Below, one piece after another: positions 4,093-32,840 of a stretch of 64,000 bases of DNA. The stretch is from Jiangellaceae bacterium. Lineage in GTDB: Bacteria; Actinomycetota; Actinomycetes; Jiangellales; Jiangellaceae. Under the pieces are notes generated by a model that was given only the letters and a program-made list of their open reading frames with translations, was not told where the DNA came from and ran no database searches. The translations under genes were made by a program, and so were the position numbers. Positions within the stretch are counted from its first letter, which is position 1; the number at the start of each line of letters is the position of its first letter. The stretch is taken from positions 32,708 through 96,707 of the forward strand of contig DASUTB010000005.1 of the NCBI GenBank assembly GCA_036374835.1. The letters run 5' to 3'.

Positions 4093-5952
4093 TTAGAAGG
4101 CGGCTTCGTCGAGGTCCATCAGCGCGTTGTCGGTCGCCTCGGCGATCGAGCGCTCGGCGGTCAGCTTCGGCAGCACGGTGCGCGCGAAGAACTGCGCCGC
4201 GGCGATCTTGCCCTCGTAGAACGACCGGTCGGCCGGCCGTAGGTCGCCGTCGAGCTTGGTAAGCGCCACGGCGGCAGAGCGCAGCAGCAGCCAGCCGACG
4301 ACGAGATCGCCGGCGGCGAGCAGCAGGCGGGTCGTGTTGAGGCCGACCTTGTAGATGTTGCGGATGTCGCCGTTCTCGGCTGCCGGGTCGGACGACATCA
4401 GGTTCTGCACCATCGAGCCGAGCATCGCCTGGACGTCACCGAGCGCGGTCGCGAGCAGTTCGCGCTCTTCCTTGAGCCGGCCGCCGCCGATGTCGGCGTC
4501 GAGCGAAGCCTGGATCTGTTCGTTGATCCATCCGATGGCTCGGCCCTTGTCCTTGATGATCTTCCGGAAGAATAAGTCGAGACCCTGGATGGCCGTAGTG
4601 CCCTCGTACAGCGTGTCGATCTTCGCGTCCCGGACGTACTGCTCCAGCGGGTAGTCCTGGAGGAAGCCGGACCCGCCGAACGTCTGCAGCGACTCCGAGC
4701 CGAGCAGCACCCACGAGCGCTCCGACCCGTAGCCCTTGACGATCGGCAGCAGCAGGTCGTTCACTCGTTCAGCCAGCTCATCGGTTTCGCCAGCGGCGGC
4801 CGCGGCCTGGACGCGGTCCTGCATCGTCGCGGTGTAGAGGACGAGCGCGCGCATGCCCTCGGCATGGGACTTCTGGGTCATGAGCGAGCGGCGTACGTCC
4901 GGATGGTTGACGATCGTCACCCGCGGAGCGGTCTTGTCGTCGGCCTGGGTCAGATCGGCGCCCTGGACGCGCTCCTTCGCGAACTCGAGTGCGTTGAGGT
5001 AGCCGGACGAGAGCGTGGCGATGGCCTTGGTGCCGACCATCATGCGGGCGAATTCGATGACCTGGAACATCTGCGCGATGCCGTCGTGGACTTCGCCTAC
5101 GAGATATCCGACGGCGGGCTCGGCGTCCCCGAACGTCAGCTCGCACGTCGAGGAGACCTTCAGGCCCATCTTCTCCTCGACGTTGGTCGCATTGACGCCG
5201 TTGCGCTCACCGAGCTCGCCGGTCTCGAAGTCGAACTTGTACTTGGGCACGATGAACATCGACAGACCCTTGGTGCCCGGTCCACCGGCGCCCTCCACAC
5301 CGGTGGGGCGCGCGAGTACCAGATGGATGATGTTCTCGGTGAGGTCATGCTCACCAGAGGTGATGAAGCGCTTCACGCCCTCGATGTGCCACGTGCCGTC
5401 CTCCTGCCGGTAGGCCTTGGTGCGGCCGGCGCCGACATCCGAACCGGCGTCCGGCTCGGTCAGCACCATCGTGGCGCCCCAACCCCGCTCGAGCATGATC
5501 TCGGCAATGCGCTTCTGCTCCGGTGTGCCGTTCTCCCATATCACGCGGGCGAAAGACGGTCCGGTCGCGTACATGTAGGCGGCGGCGTTGGAGCCGAGCA
5601 CCATCTCCGCGGCCGCCCAGTACACCGACGGCGGTACGGGCGTGCCGTCCAACTCGGCCGGGGTGGCGAGTCGCCACAGTTCGGTGTCCATCAGCGCGCG
5701 GTACGACGTCTTGAACGCCTCCGGCACGGTGACCGTGCGCTCGGCGGCGTCGTACACGGGCGGATGACGGTCGGCCTCCTCATAGGAAGCGGCGAGATCC
5801 TCCCGAGCGAGGCGGTCGACCTCTTCGAGGATTGCCCGGGCGGCGTCGGCGTCGACGTGCTCGTACTGGCCGTGGCCGAGCAGGTCGCCGCGTTCGAGAA
5901 CGTCGAACAGCAGGAACTCGATGTCGCGAAGGTTGGACTTGTAGTGACTCAT
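4093..5952 (-). CDS. Acyl-CoA dehydrogenase, large (~620 aa) type
   Basis: ACAD N-terminal, middle and C-terminal domain signatures (e.g. [37 protein letters not shown]). Confidence 0.85.
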
Positions 5953-7000: not shown

Positions 7001-8473
7001 CTACCAGCCGCGCTGGCGACGCTTGACCTCCAGCCGCGTCGGCCCGACCATGCGTGGTCGCATGAAGCGCCGTTCAGCCCGGTTCAGCTCGCGCCGGACC
7101 GGCTGCGCGGTGATCTCGCCGACAAGAACACCTGCGGCCAAGGCAATGCCGATCGCGGTGGCTTCGATCAGTGCAAAGAGGCCCGCGGCGGTGAAGCCGG
7201 CGTTCAGTTCCAACAGCGCCCGATAGATCGTCAGGCCGGGAAGCAGAATCACCATTCCTGGCACCACCACGACGAGCGGCGGAGCGTGGAGGCGCAACGC
7301 GACGATGTGCCCCGCGAGCCCGACGACCACCGCTGCCACCGCAGCCGACAACGGGGCGGCGCCCGCGGACTCCTGCATCGCGTACCAGACGATGAAGCTG
7401 AGCCCGCCGATCGCTGCGCAGGGTGCGAGCAATCGCCGAGGAGTCTGGTAGGCGAGCGCGAAGCTGGCCGCGCCGATGCCGGCCGCAATCGTGCGTACCG
7501 GCACTTCAGCCACGGTGGTGGCGGCCGTCGGCGGTGCGACGTGCATGGTGATGTCCCACTGCTCTACGATCAACAGCGCAAACACCACTCCACCGATGAT
7601 TCCGCCGGTCATGAGCACGACTTCCATGATGCGAGCGGCCGCCGTCACCAGGAATCCGGTAAGCGCATCCTGCAGCGTCGAGACGATCCCCAACCCGGCG
7701 AGCAGCACGATGATGCCGCCGGCGACGACCAGCGACGGCCGGAAGTCCGTGTTCAAAGCCGTTAAACCGGCGGCGATGAGGCCGACGACGAGGCCACCGA
7801 CGAACTGAAGATAAAAGTCGGGCCAGCCATGCCGGCGCAGGAACCTGCCCAGTTGATCGACAATGACCGTGGACGCGAACGCGACTATAGCGATCACGAG
7901 CGATCCGCCGAGCACGTTGGTGGCTGACGCGGCGAGCATGCCCCACCCGGCTGAGACCATCCAGCGTGGGTAGTACGGCTTGAGGGACTCGATCTCTCCG
8001 AGCCGAACGGCCGCCTCGCGGCGTGAAAGGTCGTTGTCGACAAGATCGACGACGAGGTTGTGGACCATCGCGACCCGGGCGTAGTTGGCCGAGCGGTGCC
8101 GGACGACGCGGACCTGGGTGACGGGCGGCCCGTCGTCGCGGATGAGCGTCACGGTGACCGCACTGAAGCTGATGTCGACTTCGGTCCGGGGCACGCCGAA
8201 CGCGTTCGCCGCAGCGATGACGGCGGCTTCGACATCACTTGTCGCCGCGCCACTGCTGACGAGAACGTCACCGAGGCGAAGCAGCAGGTCGGCGATGCGA
8301 TGTATCTCCGCATCGTGAGCCGCCGGCGCGTCAGAACGCCGTGCGTAGCGGCGCAGCACAGCTTGTGCCCCGGCTCCCGCCGGTGTTGGAGGAGGAGTGT
8401 TGTTGATCTTACGAGTCGAGCCTCTTGTCGGGTCCGGCTCCGTACCGTCTCGGCGGCGTGGACGCAGTCTCAC
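7001..8473 (-). CDS. Threonine/serine exporter family protein (ThrE-like, DUF1212+DUF3815)
   Basis: Soluble N-terminal domain followed by multiple transmembrane segments. True start may lie downstream of the first in-frame ATG. Confidence 0.7.
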   Translation of the reverse strand: MRLRPRRRDGTEPDPTRGSTRKINNTPPPTPAGAGAQAVLRRYARRSDAPAAHDAEIHRIADLLLRLGDVLVSSGAATSDVEAAVIAAANAFGVPRTEVDISFSAVTVTLIRDDGPPVTQVRVVRHRSANYARVAMVHNLVVDLVDNDLSRREAAVRLGEIESLKPYYPRWMVSAGWGMLAASATNVLGGSLVIAIVAFASTVIVDQLGRFLRRHGWPDFYLQFVGGLVVGLIAAGLTALNTDFRPSLVVAGGIIVLLAGLGIVSTLQDALTGFLVTAAARIMEVVLMTGGIIGGVVFALLIVEQWDITMHVAPPTAATTVAEVPVRTIAAGIGAASFALAYQTPRRLLAPCAAIGGLSFIVWYAMQESAGAAPLSAAVAAVVVGLAGHIVALRLHAPPLVVVVPGMVILLPGLTIYRALLELNAGFTAAGLFALIEATAIGIALAAGVLVGEITAQPVRRELNRAERRFMRPRMVGPTRLEVKRRQRGW

Positions 8474-8594: not shown

Positions 8595-8667
8595 GGGCCG
8601 CTAGCTCAATTGGCAGAGCTGTGGACTTTTAATCCATAGGTTCGGGGTTCGAGTCCCCGGCGGCCCA
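8595..8667 (+). tRNA. tRNA-Lys (anticodon UUU)
   Basis: Cloverleaf folded by hand. Acceptor stem GGGCCGC pairs with GCGGCCC, anticodon loop is CTTTTAA, T-loop is TTCGAGT, discriminator A. Confidence 0.85.
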
Positions 8668-8685
8668 CAGGCCCACAGGCCCACC
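8662..8685 (+). repeat. Tandem GGCCCACA x3 (third unit degenerate), overlapping and extending the tRNA-Lys 3' end
   Basis: Read directly: cggcccacaggcccacaggcccacc. Confidence 0.6.
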
Positions 8686-8888
8686 TCTCACCTGCACAAA
8701 TGTCGACGGACAGTGGGTGATCTTTGACCCCGCCCTCTCCAGTTGCCTACATTTCGTGCCACAAACCATGTCAGGCTCGAACCGTTGAATCCTTGGGTAT
8801 CGACGACGCCTGCGGCGACGCCTTGGCATCGAGAGCTACTTGACACCGCTAGCGCACGAACGGTGGCTTGCTGGCGTACGCGAAGCGG

Positions 8889-9176
8889 TTACGCGGCGCG
8901 TTTGACCAGGCGTAGGTCGGCTGAGAGGGCGTTGGCGATGCGTTGGAGGGTGCGGACGGTCGGGCTGGTGGAGCCGCGTTCGATACGGCTGATATCGGCC
9001 TGGTTCATGCCGCATCGGGCGGCGAGCTCGGCTTGGGTGAGCCCGTGCTGTTCGCGGAGTTCGATAACCTGCATGGCGATGTTGTAGGCCGCTTCGAACA
9101 CCGCTTGCTGCTGCAGCTCCTCGGGAGACATGCGGGCGCGGTGTGGCGCAATGAGCTCTTCGTAGCTGCGTGCCAT
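8889..9176 (-). CDS. XRE-family HTH antitoxin (HigA-like)
   Basis: 95 aa with an HTH (LTQAELAARCGMNQADISRIERG), immediately downstream of the toxin gene on the same strand. Confidence 0.7.
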   Translation of the reverse strand: MARSYEELIAPHRARMSPEELQQQAVFEAAYNIAMQVIELREQHGLTQAELAARCGMNQADISRIERGSTSPTVRTLQRIANALSADLRLVKRAA

Positions 9177-9222
9177 TGCGGGTCACCTCCACCAACCAGT
9201 ATGGGTAATTTCCTATGCGTCG

Positions 9223-9693
9223 TCAACGGCCGTGACGCGGCGTGTCCCGGCGCTGCCGTTTCTGCTGGCGTTGGCGTTCTTTGAACTCGACAAGCAGGGC
9301 CCGTGCTCGGGCGATCTCACGCTGTTGCCGTTTCTCCTTCGGGTCGGCGCCTTTGTCGTAGCCGCCGAGCAGTAGGACGATCTTGTTGCCGTGGAAGTGG
9401 ACGAAGATGCGCAGCAGGATCTTCTCCCGCTTCCCCGACCCGGCCGGATCCTGGTTGCCGAACATGTGGGTGATCTCTTCGGCGTCGTGCCGGACCCGGA
9501 ACTCGTGTAGTCCGTTGCCCAGCGCCTTGAGCCATTCGGTGCCCGCCAGATCGATCCCCCGGGCGGCCAGTACCTGTTTCATCGCCGCGTTCACCGCTGC
9601 GAGCTTGAAGCCTGACAAGCCGCCGAGGAAACGGTCGAACGGGACGGTGCCGTCCTTGGTCTCGTACACCTCCAGGGTCCACACCGCCGCCAT
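9223..9693 (-). CDS. RelE/ParE-superfamily toxin (HigB-like, phage Gp49-like) with a K/R-rich tail
   Basis: Start trimmed to MAAVWTLEVYETKDGTVPFDRF. Toxin-then-antitoxin gene order, as in higBA. Confidence 0.6.
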   Translation of the reverse strand: MAAVWTLEVYETKDGTVPFDRFLGGLSGFKLAAVNAAMKQVLAARGIDLAGTEWLKALGNGLHEFRVRHDAEEITHMFGNQDPAGSGKREKILLRIFVHFHGNKIVLLLGGYDKGADPKEKRQQREIARARALLVEFKERQRQQKRQRRDTPRHGR

Positions 9694-9855
9694 GGTACGG
9701 CGATCATGATCTCGGTCAAATGCATTACGCCGATCTTGCGTAGCCCAACCGTCGCCGCGATCTGAGGGTCCGCGTGGCACAGTTTGTGGCTTGAAATAGG
9801 GCGGGACTTTGGTGCATGGCTAAAGGCTGCTTGCATTGTGCTAGCATCGCTTCTA

Positions 9856-10082
9856 TGACGACGCTGTACATCCGGGACGTGGACGAGACGGTGGCCAACA
9901 CGTTGAAGGAACGTGCTTCGGCTGCGGGTATGTCATTGTCCGCATATGTCGCCCGAGAACTAGAGACCCTCGCATCGCGCCCCACCAACGCTGAGATCGT
10001 CCAGCGGCTCAAGGCCAGGGACCGTTCTACGGGGCCGTCAACCGCCGATATCGTGCAGACGGTGCAAGATAGCCGCAGATGA
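9856..10082 (+). CDS. vapB: Ribbon-helix-helix antitoxin (VapB/FitA-like)
   Basis: MTTLYIRDVDETVANTLKERA. Stop overlaps the vapC start codon (ATGA). Confidence 0.6.
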
Positions 10083-10477
10083 TTGTTGTCGACGCCTCTT
10101 CCATGGTCGAGGCGCTCGTGGGCCGTGACGTCGACGACGGTCTACTCGACGCGCTTGAGGGCAGCGTCCACGGTCCGCACCTGCTCGACGTGGAAGTCCT
10201 TTCCGTCCTGCGGGGCCTCACCCTAAGCGGGAAGCTGTCACCAGAGGTCGCGGAGGCTGCACGTACCGACTACTTCGCCTTGACGATCGCCCGCTACGAG
10301 GTGCATGGCCTTGCTGATCGCATCTGGGGCCTGCGTCACAACTACACCATCTACGACGCCTGCTACGTGGCGCTCGCCGAAGCACTCAATGCACCGCTTT
10401 ACACCTGCGATCACAAACTCGCTGCCGACGGCCACACCGCCGACGTCCTGGTCTTCCCCCGCAGCCACCAACCTTGA
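10079..10477 (+). CDS. vapC: PIN-domain ribonuclease toxin VapC
   Basis: MIVVDASSMVEAL..., with the PIN acidic residues. Confidence 0.8.
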   Translation: MIVVDASSMVEALVGRDVDDGLLDALEGSVHGPHLLDVEVLSVLRGLTLSGKLSPEVAEAARTDYFALTIARYEVHGLADRIWGLRHNYTIYDACYVALAEALNAPLYTCDHKLAADGHTADVLVFPRSHQP

Positions 10478-10646
10478 TGCAACGCCTGCACGGACGAATA
10501 CTCAGCCGGTCCGCTTGTCAGGTCATAGCAGCCGCCCGGACGAATCACGACCACGGACATTAGTGGGTGCGTGAATCGACCTACTCCAGCAGGCTCAGCA
10601 GTCGGGCCGCAAGGACGGTGGCGCGGCCCGATCCGGGGCGGCGGCG

Positions 10647-11993
<1,347 letters not shown>

Positions 11994-18464: not shown

Positions 18465-19076
18465 ATGCCAGAGACCTTGGTGTTGGACGAGTTCCTCCCC
18501 GCCTACGACCACGTCGTTTCCGTTTCGCAGGTCTTTCGGGCCGCGCCTGAAGAGGTATTCGAGGCGGCCGTGACCATGGATCTGTACCGGCTTCCCATGG
18601 CCCGGGTGCTCATCGCGGCCCGTGGCCTGCCGGCTCGAATCTCCGATGCCCGGGCACGGCGCCGCGGAGAGGCTGTGACCCCCGAGCCGACGACGTTCCG
18701 GATACGGGACCTGCCGGCGCACGGTTGGATCCTGCTGGGAGAGCGCCCCGGCGCCGAACTCGTCTTCGGCACCGTGACCAAGCCGTGGCGGGCTCTCGGT
18801 GGTGAGCCGAAGCAACCGGTCACCGCGGAGCACTTCGCCGGCTTCTCCGAGCCTGGCTTTGCCAAGCTGGCCGAGAGCACCAGTGTTAGCCCATATGGTG
18901 CCCACGCGTGCATCCTCACCCTTGAAACTCGGGTGGCGGCGACGGATGAGGACAGCCGTCGGCGGTTCCAGCGCTACTGGCGGGCGACCGGACCGTTCAT
19001 CAAGTTGATCCGCCCATCAGTGATGCGAGCGCTCGACCGGCGGTTTTCTCCGGTCTCACGACCAGGCGCCGAGTGA
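18465..19076 (+). CDS. Hypothetical protein
   Basis: Protein-like composition in the + frame; the overlapping - frame is low complexity. Confidence 0.5.
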   Translation: MPETLVLDEFLPAYDHVVSVSQVFRAAPEEVFEAAVTMDLYRLPMARVLIAARGLPARISDARARRRGEAVTPEPTTFRIRDLPAHGWILLGERPGAELVFGTVTKPWRALGGEPKQPVTAEHFAGFSEPGFAKLAESTSVSPYGAHACILTLETRVAATDEDSRRRFQRYWRATGPFIKLIRPSVMRALDRRFSPVSRPGAE

Positions 19077-28987: not shown

Positions 28988-29806
28988 GTGAGTTCCCTCG
29001 ATGAGATCGCCGCTGAGCTGTACGGCACGCCGCCGGACAAGTTCGTCGCGGCGCGCGATGAGTACGTGAAGCAGGCTCGTGCGTCCGGCGATCGCGCATT
29101 GGCCAGTGAGCTGGGCAAACTGCGGCGGCCGACGCAGGGCGCATGGCTGGTCAACCAGCTGGTACGCGACGACAACCCGGCACTGGGCGAGCTGTTCGGA
29201 TTGGCCGAGGAGTACGCCGCGGCGCTGGCCGAGCGAGACCGAGACCGGCTCAAGGAGCTGACGAACCGTCGGCGTGATCTCGAGGCCCGGCTCGTGGCGC
29301 GGGCGGATGAACTCGGCGTCGAAGCGGGCGCACCACCGAGCGACGAGACGCTGGGGGAGGTGCGCGGGACGCTCGACGCCATCGTTTCGGATCCGGACGT
29401 CGCCGAGCAGGTGCGTGCCGGACGCCTCGTGAAGGCGGCGGGTGCGTCCTGGGGCCCATCACCGTCACCTCCACGCAAAGCACCGGCGCGCAAGTCTGCC
29501 GGCAAGACGCCTGCGGAGGTGAAGCCGACCGAGGACACGAAGACTACGGACGACGCCCGCGCCGCCCTCGAAGCGGAACGGGCCGCCCGTGCCGCGCGGG
29601 ACCACGCTGCCGCCGAGCTCGCCGAACGCACGTCCGAGGCAGACCAGGCGAATGCCGAGTACGAACGGCTCAGCGAACGTCTTGAACAACTGCGCGCGGA
29701 CGTTCAGGCGCTTGCCCAGGACGTCCGGGTCGCGCAGCAGAACGCGGCCCGCGCCGAGCGGCGGCGCGCCAATGCCGAGCGGAACCTGAGGAGACTGGAC
29801 GCGTAG
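28988..29806 (+). CDS. Hypothetical protein, charged coiled-coil C-terminus
   Basis: GTG start. The opposite-strand 336-aa ORF is S/A/R low complexity and was rejected. Confidence 0.5.
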   Translation: MSSLDEIAAELYGTPPDKFVAARDEYVKQARASGDRALASELGKLRRPTQGAWLVNQLVRDDNPALGELFGLAEEYAAALAERDRDRLKELTNRRRDLEARLVARADELGVEAGAPPSDETLGEVRGTLDAIVSDPDVAEQVRAGRLVKAAGASWGPSPSPPRKAPARKSAGKTPAEVKPTEDTKTTDDARAALEAERAARAARDHAAAELAERTSEADQANAEYERLSERLEQLRADVQALAQDVRVAQQNAARAERRRANAERNLRRLDA

Positions 29807-29930
29807 GTGACGTAAGGTGCCGTGCCCAGCCGATCCTCCGGCCGGTTCGACGCATGTTTCTCACCTGATCGCCACCGACGTGGCGATCAGGTGAGCGATC
29901 CGCCCTTACGAGCCGTCCCGGAGCGCCGCG

Positions 29931-30197
29931 TCACACGTTGAGGTGTGCCGGCTCGTGCGTCACGTCCTCGATCTCACCGGCAGCCTTGTCGAGGAGCTCG
30001 TGCACGAGGTGCGACAGCGCGCGAGCCGTCGCGATCTCCTCGCCGATCTGCGGCCTTGCCGGGTCGGAGGGGTTGCGGCGCGCGTGGCCGTTCGCGGTCA
30101 GCTCCGTACCGTCGGCGAGGTGGATCGTCGCCTTGGCGTCGGTGCGAGTGTCGTCCTCGGTGAACGTGACGGTGACCGTCCATTGTCCGGTCTTCAT
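29931..30197 (-). CDS. DUF1876 protein, Rv1738/Rv2632c dormancy-associated family
   Basis: 88 aa, aligns with Mtb Rv1738 as I recall it (WTV...NP.D...IGEEIATARALS.L...H.IE.VTH.PA). GGAGGTG ribosome-binding site before the ATG. Confidence 0.8.
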   Translation of the reverse strand: MKTGQWTVTVTFTEDDTRTDAKATIHLADGTELTANGHARRNPSDPARPQIGEEIATARALSHLVHELLDKAAGEIEDVTHEPAHLNV

Positions 30198-30282
30198 GGT
30201 TTCTTCACCTCCGGATATCTACTTTGTGAGGCATCTACGGACTTTGGCCGGGCTGCAGGCGCCGTTTGGCCGGGGCTTCGGC

Positions 30283-30299
30283 GCTTAACGTGATCATTC
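30283..30299 (-). repeat. Box copy 1: GAATGATCACGTTAAGC, 10 nt past the baeRF stop
   Basis: Read directly. Mini-ORF MITLSAEAPAKRRLQPGQSP. About 60 nt of extended similarity to copy 6. Confidence 0.7.
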
Positions 30300-30309
30300 G
30301 AGGGGGCAC

Positions 30310-31506
30310 CTACCAGCGGAGTAGGGCGCCGATACCGTCCGTGTCGGCGAGCGGCTCGGCGGCCGAGCCGTCCAAGACCGTCACCCGGGCGCCTTCGCGC
30401 AGCGCCATGTCGATCATGCGTTCGTCAAGGCGGGGCTCAGGCTCCAACGCCTGCGGGTCGACGTCCGGCACGGTCTCGGACTCGGCGACGAGCCGGCCGT
30501 CCGGCGTTCGGTTGCCCGTCCACGCCCCGTCCGCCGACAGCAGCAGGTGCGCCACACGCCCCTCGTTCAAGGCTGCGAGTGTTCTGGACAGCCCGCACGA
30601 GCCGCCGTCACTGTTGTCGCTCATCGCGGCGTTGCGCACCCGTTCGGCCAGCCGCCCGTAGCGTGCGATGCGTGCTTTATCGAGCGGTTCGCGGACCACA
30701 CCGGCAAGCTTCGTAGCCGACAGCGACGTCCCCGTGTGATGCGTCCGGACGACGTCCGCGCCGAGGTGCTCGGGGATGGTCTCGGCCACGGCGTGCACGT
30801 TCTTGGGGTCGCCCGCGATCACGACACATTCCCAGCCGAACTCGCGCGCATGGTCGGCGACGCGCGGACCGAGCGTGTGCAGGTATTGGAGCAGCCGATC
30901 CTCTTCCCGCTTGTCGAACAGGTCGTGATGCGAGGCGCTGCTGTGATGCGTCGTCGTCGGGGTGGCGTGGCCCTTTCCGGTTAGCTCGCGCCGGTCGGCG
31001 AGGTCCTCCGGATGTGCGATCGTCGCCACCTCGGTCACCGAACCCATGCGTATGTCCACGAGACGGACTTCGTGCGCGCCGACGGCGACGCATCCGGCCG
31101 GCGGGGCGGCACTCCACGCTGTCAGCAGCGGTCGCAGCGCGGGGCGAGGTCCCATCTCCACCTGATCCGACAACGGCATCTGAACGGTCAGCCTTTCGAC
31201 ATGACCGTTGCTGAGCGTTGCGAACATGGCCCTACCGCGGCCCGGTGCGCGGGCGTCCAGCACCGCTTCGACGTCCTGGTTCAGCTCGTTGAGCCGGTTG
31301 CCGATCGTCGAGAAGCGGTCCCGTGGGCTGGACTTGCGAAGCTCGTCCCGCAGCCGCTTCAAGTCCTTGCGGACCCGGGCCTGCCACGCGGGTTGCGATC
31401 CCTCGTCGGTGGGATCCGCCGTGGCGTACAGCGACAGCACACCGATGTCGTCACTCATATCCGCCAGGCCGCGTAACGTCGCCCAATCGAGAGACACGGT
31501 GCTCAC
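30310..31506 (-). CDS. eRF1-domain (baeRF/Rv2629-like) protein
   Basis: 398 aa. Call rests on overall resemblance to the mycobacterial Rv2629-like peptide-chain-release-factor-like family. Confidence 0.55.
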   Translation of the reverse strand: MSTVSLDWATLRGLADMSDDIGVLSLYATADPTDEGSQPAWQARVRKDLKRLRDELRKSSPRDRFSTIGNRLNELNQDVEAVLDARAPGRGRAMFATLSNGHVERLTVQMPLSDQVEMGPRPALRPLLTAWSAAPPAGCVAVGAHEVRLVDIRMGSVTEVATIAHPEDLADRRELTGKGHATPTTTHHSSASHHDLFDKREEDRLLQYLHTLGPRVADHAREFGWECVVIAGDPKNVHAVAETIPEHLGADVVRTHHTGTSLSATKLAGVVREPLDKARIARYGRLAERVRNAAMSDNSDGGSCGLSRTLAALNEGRVAHLLLSADGAWTGNRTPDGRLVAESETVPDVDPQALEPEPRLDERMIDMALREGARVTVLDGSAAEPLADTDGIGALLRW

Positions 31507-31591: not shown

Positions 31592-32677
31592 CTATGGCCG
31601 CTTGGCGCCCACGAACGGTTTGTACGACCCGCCGGCCTGCATGGCAGGAGCGGTGGTCACGTCCGTGCGCGGATTGGACGCGTGCACGACCGTTCCGTTC
31701 CCGATGTACATCGCGACATGGCTGATCGGGCTGCCATAGAACAGCAGATCACCAGGGGCCAATTCGTTGGCCGATACGGGAGTGCCGACGCCGTATTGCG
31801 CACTCGATGACCGGGGAAGACCGACGCCGACGGTGCCGTATGCCCAGCTCGTCAGGCCGGAGCAGTCGAAGGCGTCCGGCCCCGCGGCACCGTAGGAGTA
31901 GGGGTAGCCGACTTTGGAGAGCGCCGCTTGGACCGCGGCAGTCGCCCGCTCGCCGGCTGTGACATCGGCTCCGTCGTCGACATCGGCCCCGTCGTCGGTG
32001 GCCGTGATCCGGTGCGTGGCTTCGGACCGGTCCGCCTTAGCGGCTGCGCGTTCGCGCTCCTCCCGCCGGCGCAGTTCGGCCTGCTGCTCGGCGGTGAGCC
32101 GCTCGAGCAACTCCTGTTGTTGGGCGAGCAACTCCTCGACCGAGTTGCGTTCGGCTCGAAGCGTCGCTTCGATGTGCTCGAGGCGGCGCTCCTGCTCGGC
32201 GGCCATGAGTCTGGCCTGCTCGAGCGAGATCCGCTCGGCGGCGAGCGTCTCGAGCCGGTCGTTCTGCAGTTTCGCAAAGGCGTCCAACGTGGACGCGTCG
32301 GCAAGGTACTGGCCGATGTCGTCGGACAGCAGAGCCGAAACCGCAGGTTCGACGCCGGCGCCTCGGTAGACCGCGGCGGCGAACCCGCCGACCTCAACGG
32401 TCAGCGCGTCGAGACGTTCGGTCTGGCGATCAACTCGCGACTTGGCGCGGTCCAGTTCGCGCTGGGCGTCGGCAAGCTGTTCGGAGGCGATGTTGTGCCG
32501 CTCGTTGGCTTCGGCGGCCTTGGCATGGAGTCTGTCGACCTGGGTCTGGACCTCGTCGAGAGTCGGCTGCGGGTCGGCCCCGACGGCCGAGCCGCCGATC
32601 ACCGCCATGGCCGAAGCGGCGCTGGCGGCCACGACGATCCGGGCAAGGTGCAGTCGATTGCGGGGCTGTTGTGGCAC
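31592..32677 (-). CDS. NlpC/P60 (C40) peptidoglycan endopeptidase with N-terminal coiled coil (RipA-like)
   Basis: Catalytic motif DCSGLTSWAY plus H/H. Signal peptide. GTG start. Confidence 0.85.
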   Translation of the reverse strand: MPQQPRNRLHLARIVVAASAASAMAVIGGSAVGADPQPTLDEVQTQVDRLHAKAAEANERHNIASEQLADAQRELDRAKSRVDRQTERLDALTVEVGGFAAAVYRGAGVEPAVSALLSDDIGQYLADASTLDAFAKLQNDRLETLAAERISLEQARLMAAEQERRLEHIEATLRAERNSVEELLAQQQELLERLTAEQQAELRRREERERAAAKADRSEATHRITATDDGADVDDGADVTAGERATAAVQAALSKVGYPYSYGAAGPDAFDCSGLTSWAYGTVGVGLPRSSSAQYGVGTPVSANELAPGDLLFYGSPISHVAMYIGNGTVVHASNPRTDVTTAPAMQAGGSYKPFVGAKRP

Positions 32678-32689
32678 CGCGGGTCACCC

Positions 32690-32840
32690 TTCCTTCCGCG
32701 TCCGCCTACCGAGTTAGCTGACGGGTTTGGGCGGGGAAGGCGCCCTTCGGCCACCGGTGGCGGCCGACTCACCCCGGGGAAGTGATGGGTCCCCGGTTCC
32801 AGCCTTTGGGCCGGATTCGGCGGGAAGCGAGCTGTCGGTC
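32690..32840 (-). ncRNA. c-di-AMP riboswitch (ydaO/yuaA class) in the leader of the NlpC/P60 gene
   Basis: Transcript-sense sequence GAAUCCGGCCCAAAGGCUGGAACCGGGGACCC...CCCCGGGGUGAGUCGGCC...GGCCGAAGGGCGCC...CCCAAACCCGUCAGCUAACUCGGUAGGCGG matches the hallmark ydaO blocks as I recall them (GAAUCCGG, GGGGUGAAUC, CCCGAACCCGUCAGCUAACCUCGUA). This riboswitch class is known to precede rpf and NlpC/P60 genes in Actinobacteria. Confidence 0.65.

Follow-up and report, generated by a model that had tools for sequence, protein, structure and literature searches.

Two toxin-antitoxin operons beside tRNA-Lys(UUU) at the edge of a lineage-variable segment in a Jiangellaceae bacterium

Introduction

Eighteen of the 41 defence-island hot spots of Escherichia coli lie at tRNA loci, and at one hot spot 68% of the occupied cases have no detectable mobile element (PMC10121019). 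A core flank, variable content, and small defence or addiction modules are features that these hot spots share with the locus described here. The locus lies in a 64,000-nucleotide stretch of a Jiangellaceae bacterium (Actinomycetota; GenBank assembly GCA_036374835.1, contig DASUTB010000005.1, positions 32,708 to 96,707), hereafter called the window, in which a tRNA-Lys(UUU) gene is followed by two toxin-antitoxin (TA) operons. The two data sets differ in scale: the E. coli study covered 1,351 genomes of one species (PMC10121019), whereas a handful of distant metagenomic relatives were available here.

The tRNA-linked islands of actinomycetes, namely actinomycete integrative and conjugative elements (AICEs) of the pSAM2/SLP1 type and prophages, resemble the window in their tRNA 3' site, variable content, and TA cargo. 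The att identity blocks of tRNA-targeting tyrosine integrases comprise tens of bases of the 3' part of the tRNA and flank the element. The tRNA-Lys of the window is used by integrases elsewhere, in loci L115 and L121 (comparison loci are numbered with the prefix L). Unlike AICEs and prophages, the locus has no integrase, no flanking tRNA 3' repeat, and no replication or transfer genes.

The two TA pairs have described counterparts. The solved HigBs of Streptococcus pneumoniae (HigBA, 6af4/6af3) and Mycobacterium tuberculosis (HigB1, Rv1955, 7awk/7nbu) have a RelE-type fold, as is predicted for the toxin nearest to the tRNA, and in HigBA, as in the window, the toxin gene is upstream of an XRE-HTH antitoxin gene. 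In contrast to the TAC system of M. tuberculosis, the window pair is not accompanied by a gene for a SecB-like chaperone. The second pair resembles VapBC/FitAB in its PIN toxin with an acidic quartet and its FitA-like ribbon-helix-helix (RHH) antitoxin, whose gene precedes that of the toxin and overlaps it by 4 nt.

An initial annotation, made from the sequence alone, had taken the reiterated tRNA 3' end and the two TA modules as possible traces of a decayed integrative island or a TA-only islet. In this study, we compared the locus with related genomes, metagenomic contigs, plasmids, and phage collections. We lean towards a different reading, namely that two independent, apparently intact TA operons adjoin each other, in opposite orientation, where a lineage-variable segment borders on the tRNA, that the site is a hot spot, and that the repeat at the tRNA end is not an att scar.

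Results

A HigBA-type pair and a VapBC pair lie downstream of tRNA-Lys

The order given in the initial annotation, with a HigB/HigA-like pair on the minus strand, VapB/VapC on the plus strand, and then citrate synthase, was recovered at the same coordinates. In the first pair, the higB-like toxin gene (9223-9693, minus strand, 156 aa) comes first, and the gene of a higA-like XRE/HTH_3 antitoxin (8889-9176, minus strand, 95 aa; Pfam HTH_3, E = 1.6e-16) follows 46 nt downstream, the reversed order of HigBA. Pfam did not match the higB-like protein even at E ≤ 1, and TIGR02683 matched it with E = 0.005, far below the cut-off of that model. The toxin has 719 metagenomic homologues. The mean column identity of 34 aligned members is 62%, and 16 of these 34 match Pfam Gp49 (PF05973) weakly, the best with E = 1.4e-5. 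The motifs LHEFR and LLRxFVHF...GGYDK are like the Gp49 consensus.

An AlphaFold2 model of the toxin was built on the family alignment (pLDDT 80.8, pTM 0.77) and submitted to Foldseek. S. pneumoniae HigB (6af4, E = 1.2e-5) and M. tuberculosis HigB1 (7awk, E = 8.7e-4) were retrieved with TM-scores to the target of 0.66-0.73; HigBs ranked at the top, followed by YafQ, RelE, and YoeB. The fold search succeeded where sequence-only PDB searches with the protein or its profile returned nothing meaningful. PADLOC defence models matched only a generic HTH. By fold and family, the protein probably belongs to a divergent Gp49/HigB branch of the RelE/ParE superfamily. It differs from the solved HigBs in its low identity to them (only 16-22%), in lacking a Pfam match, and in two features of its own: residues ~78-92 lie in a ~20-residue insertion modelled with low confidence, and a long basic helix (120-149) is found at the C-terminus.

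The antitoxin gene accompanies the toxin gene in other loci. In L101-L104, the loci that extend past the toxin, a 94-95-aa HTH gene lies 31-46 nt behind the toxin gene, and an HTH regulator follows the higB-like toxin gene on plasmid pAKP20. The pair at 8889-9693 is, on gene order and predicted fold, a HigBA-type module. Its toxin would be a RelE-type, ribosome-dependent mRNA endonuclease, as fold and family suggest, and by analogy with the family the downstream HTH antitoxin would neutralise the toxin and repress its promoter.

The second pair consists of vapB (9855-10082, plus strand), which encodes a 75-aa FitA-like RHH antitoxin (Pfam PF22513, E = 2.2e-8), and vapC (10079-10477, plus strand), which encodes a 132-aa PIN-domain toxin (Pfam PIN, E = 1.4e-7 over residues 2-115). 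The vapC start overlaps the vapB stop in an ATGA at 10079-10082. VapB matched the NCBIfam model VapB_Myco with E = 2.3e-7, below the family cut-off. The acidic residues D5, E39, D93, and D111 of VapC were read from the translation. VapC also matched the PIN protein PAE0151 (PDB 2fe1) with E = 4.3e-5, and the D93/D111 region was aligned. Relatives of VapC are found on Saccharopolyspora and Mycobacterium avium plasmids, with 37-41% identity. The pair differs from characterised VapBC systems in the weakness of its similarity (Pfam PIN, E = 1e-7) and in falling below the NCBIfam cut-offs. Judged by fold and family, VapC would be a PIN RNase restrained by the RHH antitoxin VapB.

The two operons diverge from a shared promoter region at 9694-9854, with promoter-like elements on both sides. 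A promoter-like TTGACC-16-TACCAT lies on the minus strand, and TGC-TAGCAT was read directly 7 nt ahead of the vapB ATG. Both TA promoters would be placed for leaderless or near-leaderless transcripts. Within 9684-9719 of the minus strand, the promoter-like -10 hexamer TACCAT (9697-9692) runs into the annotated start codon of higB (ATG at 9693); with the GTG at 9684 as start codon instead, higB would be leaderless and would fit homologues that start with MWT....

The higBA cassette is found in unrelated contexts

Nucleotide homology of higBA to L101-L104 (68-82%) is confined to 8885-9740. On the higA side it ends no more than 4 nt from the stop codon, and on the other side at most 47 nt upstream of higB. 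The cassette was seen in five unrelated contexts. In L102 it is carried by an element with a TrwC relaxase, a Prim-Pol, a single-stranded DNA-binding protein (SSB), and a type I restriction-modification system. In L104 (a 3.16-Mb ENA/NCBI contig, 9677-10760), a 66%-identical higBA lies ~250 nt downstream of a tRNA-Val(UAC), so that the cassette adjoins a tRNA gene there too, and in L101 the setting is unrelated to that of the window. Three actinobacterial plasmids also carry the module. HigB-like relatives were not found in the phage collections INPHARED and IMG/VR.

The cassette and the conserved neighbour of the tRNA differ in conservation: higBA is 77-82% identical at the nucleotide level to copies elsewhere, whereas orthologues of the adjacent ThrE-family exporter (72% at the protein level) show no nucleotide similarity to the window that could be detected beyond the tRNA. 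At the level of sequence comparison, the higBA cassette is demonstrably mobile cargo, which bears out for higBA the initial remark that TA pairs are typical cargo. No sign was seen that higBA and vapBC arrived jointly; in other higBA loci the similarity does not go beyond the cassette.

Gene order changes exactly at the 3' end of tRNA-Lys

The left flank of the tRNA is conserved. It contains an acyl-CoA dehydrogenase (ACAD) gene (4093-5952, minus strand), whose product has 87% amino acid identity to its collinear counterpart in L106 and which is also present in L116, and the ThrE-family exporter gene (7001-8359, minus strand; Pfam ThrE, E = 1.3e-65), which is divergent from the tRNA. ThrE of the window is only ~42% identical to the proteins of cultured Actinopolymorpha and Nocardioides. 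Proteins identical to those of the window were seen chiefly in short assemblies derived from SRA data, and for the identical ThrE an NCBI source is listed as well. Orthologues stand beside the same tRNA in L106 and L116 (72%), L107 (86%), and L108 (78%). The order ACAD-ThrE-tRNA-Lys is kept in L106 and L116; L107 and L108 show the ThrE-tRNA adjacency on contigs that break off within the tRNA.

To the right of the tRNA, the gene order differs in every comparable relative found. A monooxygenase and a PadR regulator follow in L106, and a cold-shock protein and an enoyl-CoA hydratase in L116. In L126 (ThrE 81%), the tRNA is absent and a gene judged DUF2630-like by eye is present. In three independent comparisons, the breakpoint is exactly at the tRNA 3' end. 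The initial annotation had named a universally conserved order as the mark of an ancient core arrangement; the right-hand order was conserved in no relative found.

Tblastx/tblastn synteny delimited a segment without counterpart in L116 at 8668-28964. By Pfam annotation, it comprises, besides the TA operons and citrate synthase, an MFS transporter, methyltransferases, a LuxR regulator, a hydrolase, a histidine kinase, a sugar ABC transporter, a GntR regulator, and oxidoreductases. Synteny with L116 resumes at 28988-30197 with a 272-aa hypothetical protein on the plus strand (55% identity over 256 aa) and an Rv2632c-like protein at 29931-30197 on the minus strand (82% over 87 aa), the counterparts of which lie 1.9-3.1 kb after the tRNA-Lys of L116. 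Collinearity spans 28,988-30,405 of the window, including the start of the next gene, which is of the baeRF family in the window. Because synteny resumes at 28.96 kb, ~20.3 kb in the window stand against 1.9 kb in L116, and the variable segment is therefore ~20 kb rather than 1.8 kb. The 1.8-kb islet followed by core genes, as initially proposed, is too small, since the non-syntenic part includes citrate synthase. A discrete insertion of TA genes only also found no support, as none of the relatives found combines both flanks with an empty site; insertion in the window is therefore not polarised against rearrangement or loss in the relatives.

Citrate synthase is encoded at 10647-11993 on the minus strand (Pfam, E = 5.7e-141), with a homology-supported start near 11957. 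The closest citrate synthases are those of L124, a short JGI metagenome contig (90%; 89% from 11957), and L125, a Jiangellaceae metagenome-assembled genome (83%). Their flanks are not syntenic with the window, and no tRNA, ThrE, or TA pair is nearby. When citrate synthase was used as the anchor in species genomes (best 78%), none of the 14 best loci had a tRNA within 10 kb, and neither ThrE nor NmrA lay nearby.

The composition of the stretch at 8669-10646 is low in GC (62.9%, against 67.4% for the window), placing it in the lowest 0.8% of equal-sized windows. The GC content at third codon positions (GC3) of the four TA genes is 0.72-0.83 on a background of 0.81 +/- 0.07. The GC3 deviation that the initial annotation had proposed to look for is thus not seen in the TA genes.

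These data bear on the view that the TA pairs and citrate synthase have long stood beside tRNA-Lys, that L106, L116, and L126 are the rearranged ones, and that the repeat is a neutral local duplication. The GC3 of the TA genes, which is within the range of the genome, agrees with such an old chromosomal arrangement, as do the lack of mobility genes in 8.7-29 kb and an order shared by every population contig sampled, with several accession series of sequencing runs represented. The available relatives are also distant (ThrE 72%), and rearrangement would be expected anyway. Against this stand the position of the breakpoint in all three comparisons, the closest citrate synthases with their different neighbours, and the nucleotide conservation of higBA across unrelated contexts when ThrE orthologues have lost theirs. 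We consider an old arrangement unlikely.

The 3' flank of tRNA-Lys receives foreign DNA in related genomes

Different kinds of mobile DNA were found directly after the same tRNA in other loci. In L115 and L121 (JGI contigs with an identical tRNA-Lys), tyrosine-integrase-like genes lie 42-257 nt downstream and are convergent with the tRNA. The L121 protein has both Phage_integrase and Phage_int_M (the catalytic and central domains), and that of L115 has Phage_int_M only.

In L106 (JGI 3300037440), a 345-bp element without open reading frame (ORF), resembling a miniature inverted-repeat transposable element (MITE), was found at 9421-9775, four bases past the discriminator of the tRNA. Its ends are 20-nt terminal inverted repeats (TIRs; 18/20), and it contains internal 17-21-nt motifs and five copies of the motif CGAGTGGTCACAnATGG in both orientations. 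ACCCG borders the element on either side, and the last bases of the tRNA are thus reiterated by target duplication in L106; a third ACCCG follows. The L106 TIR was found neither in the window nor in any other fetched locus.

A population variant, L090 (Logan SRR31654882), matches the window from 9779 rightwards. Its positions 1-495 are the left end of an IS21-family element that abuts 9778|9779 in the higB-vapB promoter region and replaces the higB side. The N-terminus of its IstA was recognised by NCBIfam (E = 1.9e-9) and is 64-68% identical to plasmid istA genes. The element end has three ~24-nt subterminal repeats and the terminus ...CCACGGACA. With one junction seen, this may be a simple insertion or a loss of higBA. 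These loci indicate that, among these organisms, foreign DNA enters repeatedly at the 3' flank of tRNA-Lys.

An apparent 26-nt inverted repeat (8751-8776/9772-9797) around higBA was rejected as a chance occurrence; it did not exceed shuffles and is absent around homologous cassettes. The IS21 junction of L090 falls inside its right arm.

The window contains no integrase and no att pair

An integrase-like gene was found neither by Pfam among the called genes at 6-33 kb nor by tblastn with the L121 integrase, in agreement with the initial annotation. One 203-aa ORF at 18465-19076, within the 6-33 kb covered, also had no Pfam match. A second copy of the repeat further downstream, which had been put forward as a possible attR, was not found in 64 kb: the terminal 22-mer of the tRNA with up to three mismatches occurs only once, and local alignment of the tRNA 3' half to all four spacers and to the whole window gave nothing above shuffles. 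The 8-mer array itself was rejected as an attL/attR pair, as its copies are 8 bp long, form an uninterrupted tandem, and enclose nothing. In other loci this tRNA does serve as an insertion site, as seen from the integrases of L115 and L121 and the TIR element of L106.

The only viral match to the tRNA-Lys 3' end was L109 (IMG/VR UViG_3300036790_000419, 149 kb). It was rejected as an attP, since the match lies in a phage tRNA array, where 19 tRNA genes, a tRNA-SeC call among them, are packed into 2.6 kb.

It is quite improbable that the locus is a decayed tRNA-integrated element, with the array as att remnant and the two TA pairs as surviving cargo. The integrases directly after the identical tRNA in L115 and L121, the higBA-family modules on a relaxase-bearing element (L102) and on plasmids, and the lower GC across the TA stretch are in its favour. 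Its difficulties are that perfect tandem copies of 8 bp with nothing between them are unlike att blocks, that neither another tRNA end nor an integrase remnant was found in the window, that higBA and vapBC show no sign of common arrival, and that the region differing from L116 is 20 kb long and ends without a repeat.

The last bases of tRNA-Lys are repeated in a tandem array

The tRNA-Lys(UUU) gene (8595-8667, plus strand, ending at 8667/8668) was called by ARAGORN and matched Rfam RF00005 with 70.3 bits. CCA is not encoded, the discriminator is A8667, and the cloverleaf is retained in the predicted fold. Direct reading gave the tandem 8-mers GGCCCACA GGCCCACA GGCCCACC at 8662-8685 on the plus strand, starting within the acceptor stem. 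Tandem Repeats Finder (TRF) reported GGCCCACA x2.9 at 8662-8684 (score 46, 100% matches). The tRNA and the threefold reiteration of its 3' end, as first described, are thus confirmed by ARAGORN, Rfam, TRF, and direct reading. The first unit consists of the final 5 nt of the acceptor stem, the discriminator, and 2 nt of the trailer.

Loose short tandem arrays are frequent in the window, with 56 TRF rows at a score of at least 30 and ~11 at a score of at least 46. Perfect arrays, defined by a period of 4-12 and at least 2.85 copies and controlled with 40 Markov shuffles, are rare: the one at the tRNA-Lys end is the only one in 64 kb, and none occurred in the 40 shuffles, so the array is more than chance. 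The probability by position that an array starts within the last six bases of one of the two tRNA genes of the window is ~3e-4, a post hoc figure. The other tRNA gene, tRNA-Pro at 63630, has no such repeat.

The array was then compared with 15 other loci bearing tRNA-Lys: the 13 loci of a metagenome scan (of 14) that extend past the gene, L106, and the phage L109. Fourteen of them have the identical 73 nt, and the phage tRNA-Lys shares the 3' end. A second copy of the 8-mer was found in none of the 15. In 11 of them, CC comes directly after the tRNA, in most cases as CCA. Because the third copy in the window likewise continues with CC, two extra 8-nt units right after the discriminator are the simplest description. 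Three copies are present in all 18 population contigs that cover the array (99.4-100% identity with the window). It is a 16-bp tandem expansion of the tRNA terminus that is private to this population.

At most other loci (L111, L113-L115, L118, L120-L123), the identical 73-nt tRNA-Lys is followed by an encoded CCA; in the window (CAG), L116, L117, and L110, it is not. A trailer of ~80 nt (CCAACRCCCAGGTSAG...) after the tRNA is common to several loci before they diverge.

Duplication followed by strand slippage at a structured, GGCC-palindromic site is the most likely origin of the array. The alternative of a transposon footprint was weighed against it, in which an element with 8-bp target duplications left the tRNA-Lys end, end joining kept both copies, and a second event or slippage added the third. 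Target duplications in the IS21, IS256, and ISL3 families reach 8 bp, and Ku/LigD end joining occurs in actinobacteria. The L106 element, which reiterates the last bases of the tRNA through its ACCCG duplication, the IS21-family element active 1.1 kb away in the same population, and the exact placement of the sole perfect array of the window on a tRNA end all suit a footprint. On the other hand, neither between the copies nor next to them is there an element or a remnant of a TIR, and the L106 TIR is absent from the window. To our knowledge, excision footprints that keep both target copies are rarely documented in bacteria, which counts against this origin. Three copies would require two events, and the A shared by the first two units favours copying of one unit over two independent repairs. 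We regard a footprint as improbable, and the more specific claim that mobile elements target the last bases of the tRNA-Lys gene and left the array there appears no less doubtful.

A functional repeat was considered as well, in which the array would act as a 3'-trailer signal for processing or termination of tRNA-Lys through a GGCC-CACA-GGCC hairpin or alternative acceptor registers. Copies 2 and 3 pair as a 4-bp hairpin of this kind right behind the tRNA in the predicted fold, and the tRNA-Lys has no obvious intrinsic terminator, unlike tRNA-Pro, which is followed by a normal terminator hairpin. However, the hairpin has only 4 bp and no U tract, and the alternative acceptor registers pair only 5 bp. 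The repeat is not conserved, as it is absent at all 15 other tRNA loci. A functional role therefore seems very improbable.

Other features of the window

On the minus strand at 29931-31506, the Rv2632c-like protein adjoins a bacterial eRF1-like (baeRF family 10/2/5) protein. The gene for an NlpC/P60 cell-wall hydrolase (31592-32677) has a c-di-AMP riboswitch upstream of it (32688-32832, minus strand; Rfam RF00379, 75.9 bits).

Discussion

The best-supported view of this locus is an ordinary one: known module types at a known type of location, an ordinary hot spot of gene exchange. On this view, the TA modules would have arrived by horizontal transfer as minimal cassettes of ~0.85 kb, and they would persist by addiction, incidentally stabilising or defending their neighbourhood. 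The variable segment would begin exactly at the tRNA-Lys 3' end, and this genome retains neither an integrase nor an att duplication.

Several observations weigh against this view. The GC3 of the TA genes is not deviant, and the low GC of the stretch comes in part from ~550 bp of intergenic DNA. The segment to ~29 kb holds an apparently housekeeping citrate synthase and, by Pfam, no mobility gene. An empty site with both the left and the right flank was found in no relative. The array raises further points. No variation in copy number was seen, which is a weak test with 18 contigs that are 99.4-100% identical. Its exact placement may indicate that the cause has to do with the tRNA terminus, a connection that plain slippage by itself does not make. 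Slippage also leaves the first 8-nt unit unexplained, which ends in A where the relatives have C.

The exact coincidence of the sole perfect array of the window with the tRNA terminus is the one point that could gain wider weight. Should element traffic, and not slippage, be its source, it would be a documented case of target-specific transposition at tRNA ends. A true footprint would point to a family of transposable elements that target tRNA termini in an uncultured actinobacterial lineage, and to footprint-leaving excision in bacteria.

As an ordinary hot spot, the locus has little importance beyond annotation. The HigB/Gp49 subfamily is well populated and poorly modelled, most of its 719 homologues being without a Pfam call, and it merits a profile of its own. 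For the organisms concerned, the locus provides a clear uncultured-actinobacterial example of a tRNA-Lys flank that collects addiction modules, with integrases, a MITE-like element, and an IS21 element at the site in related genomes.

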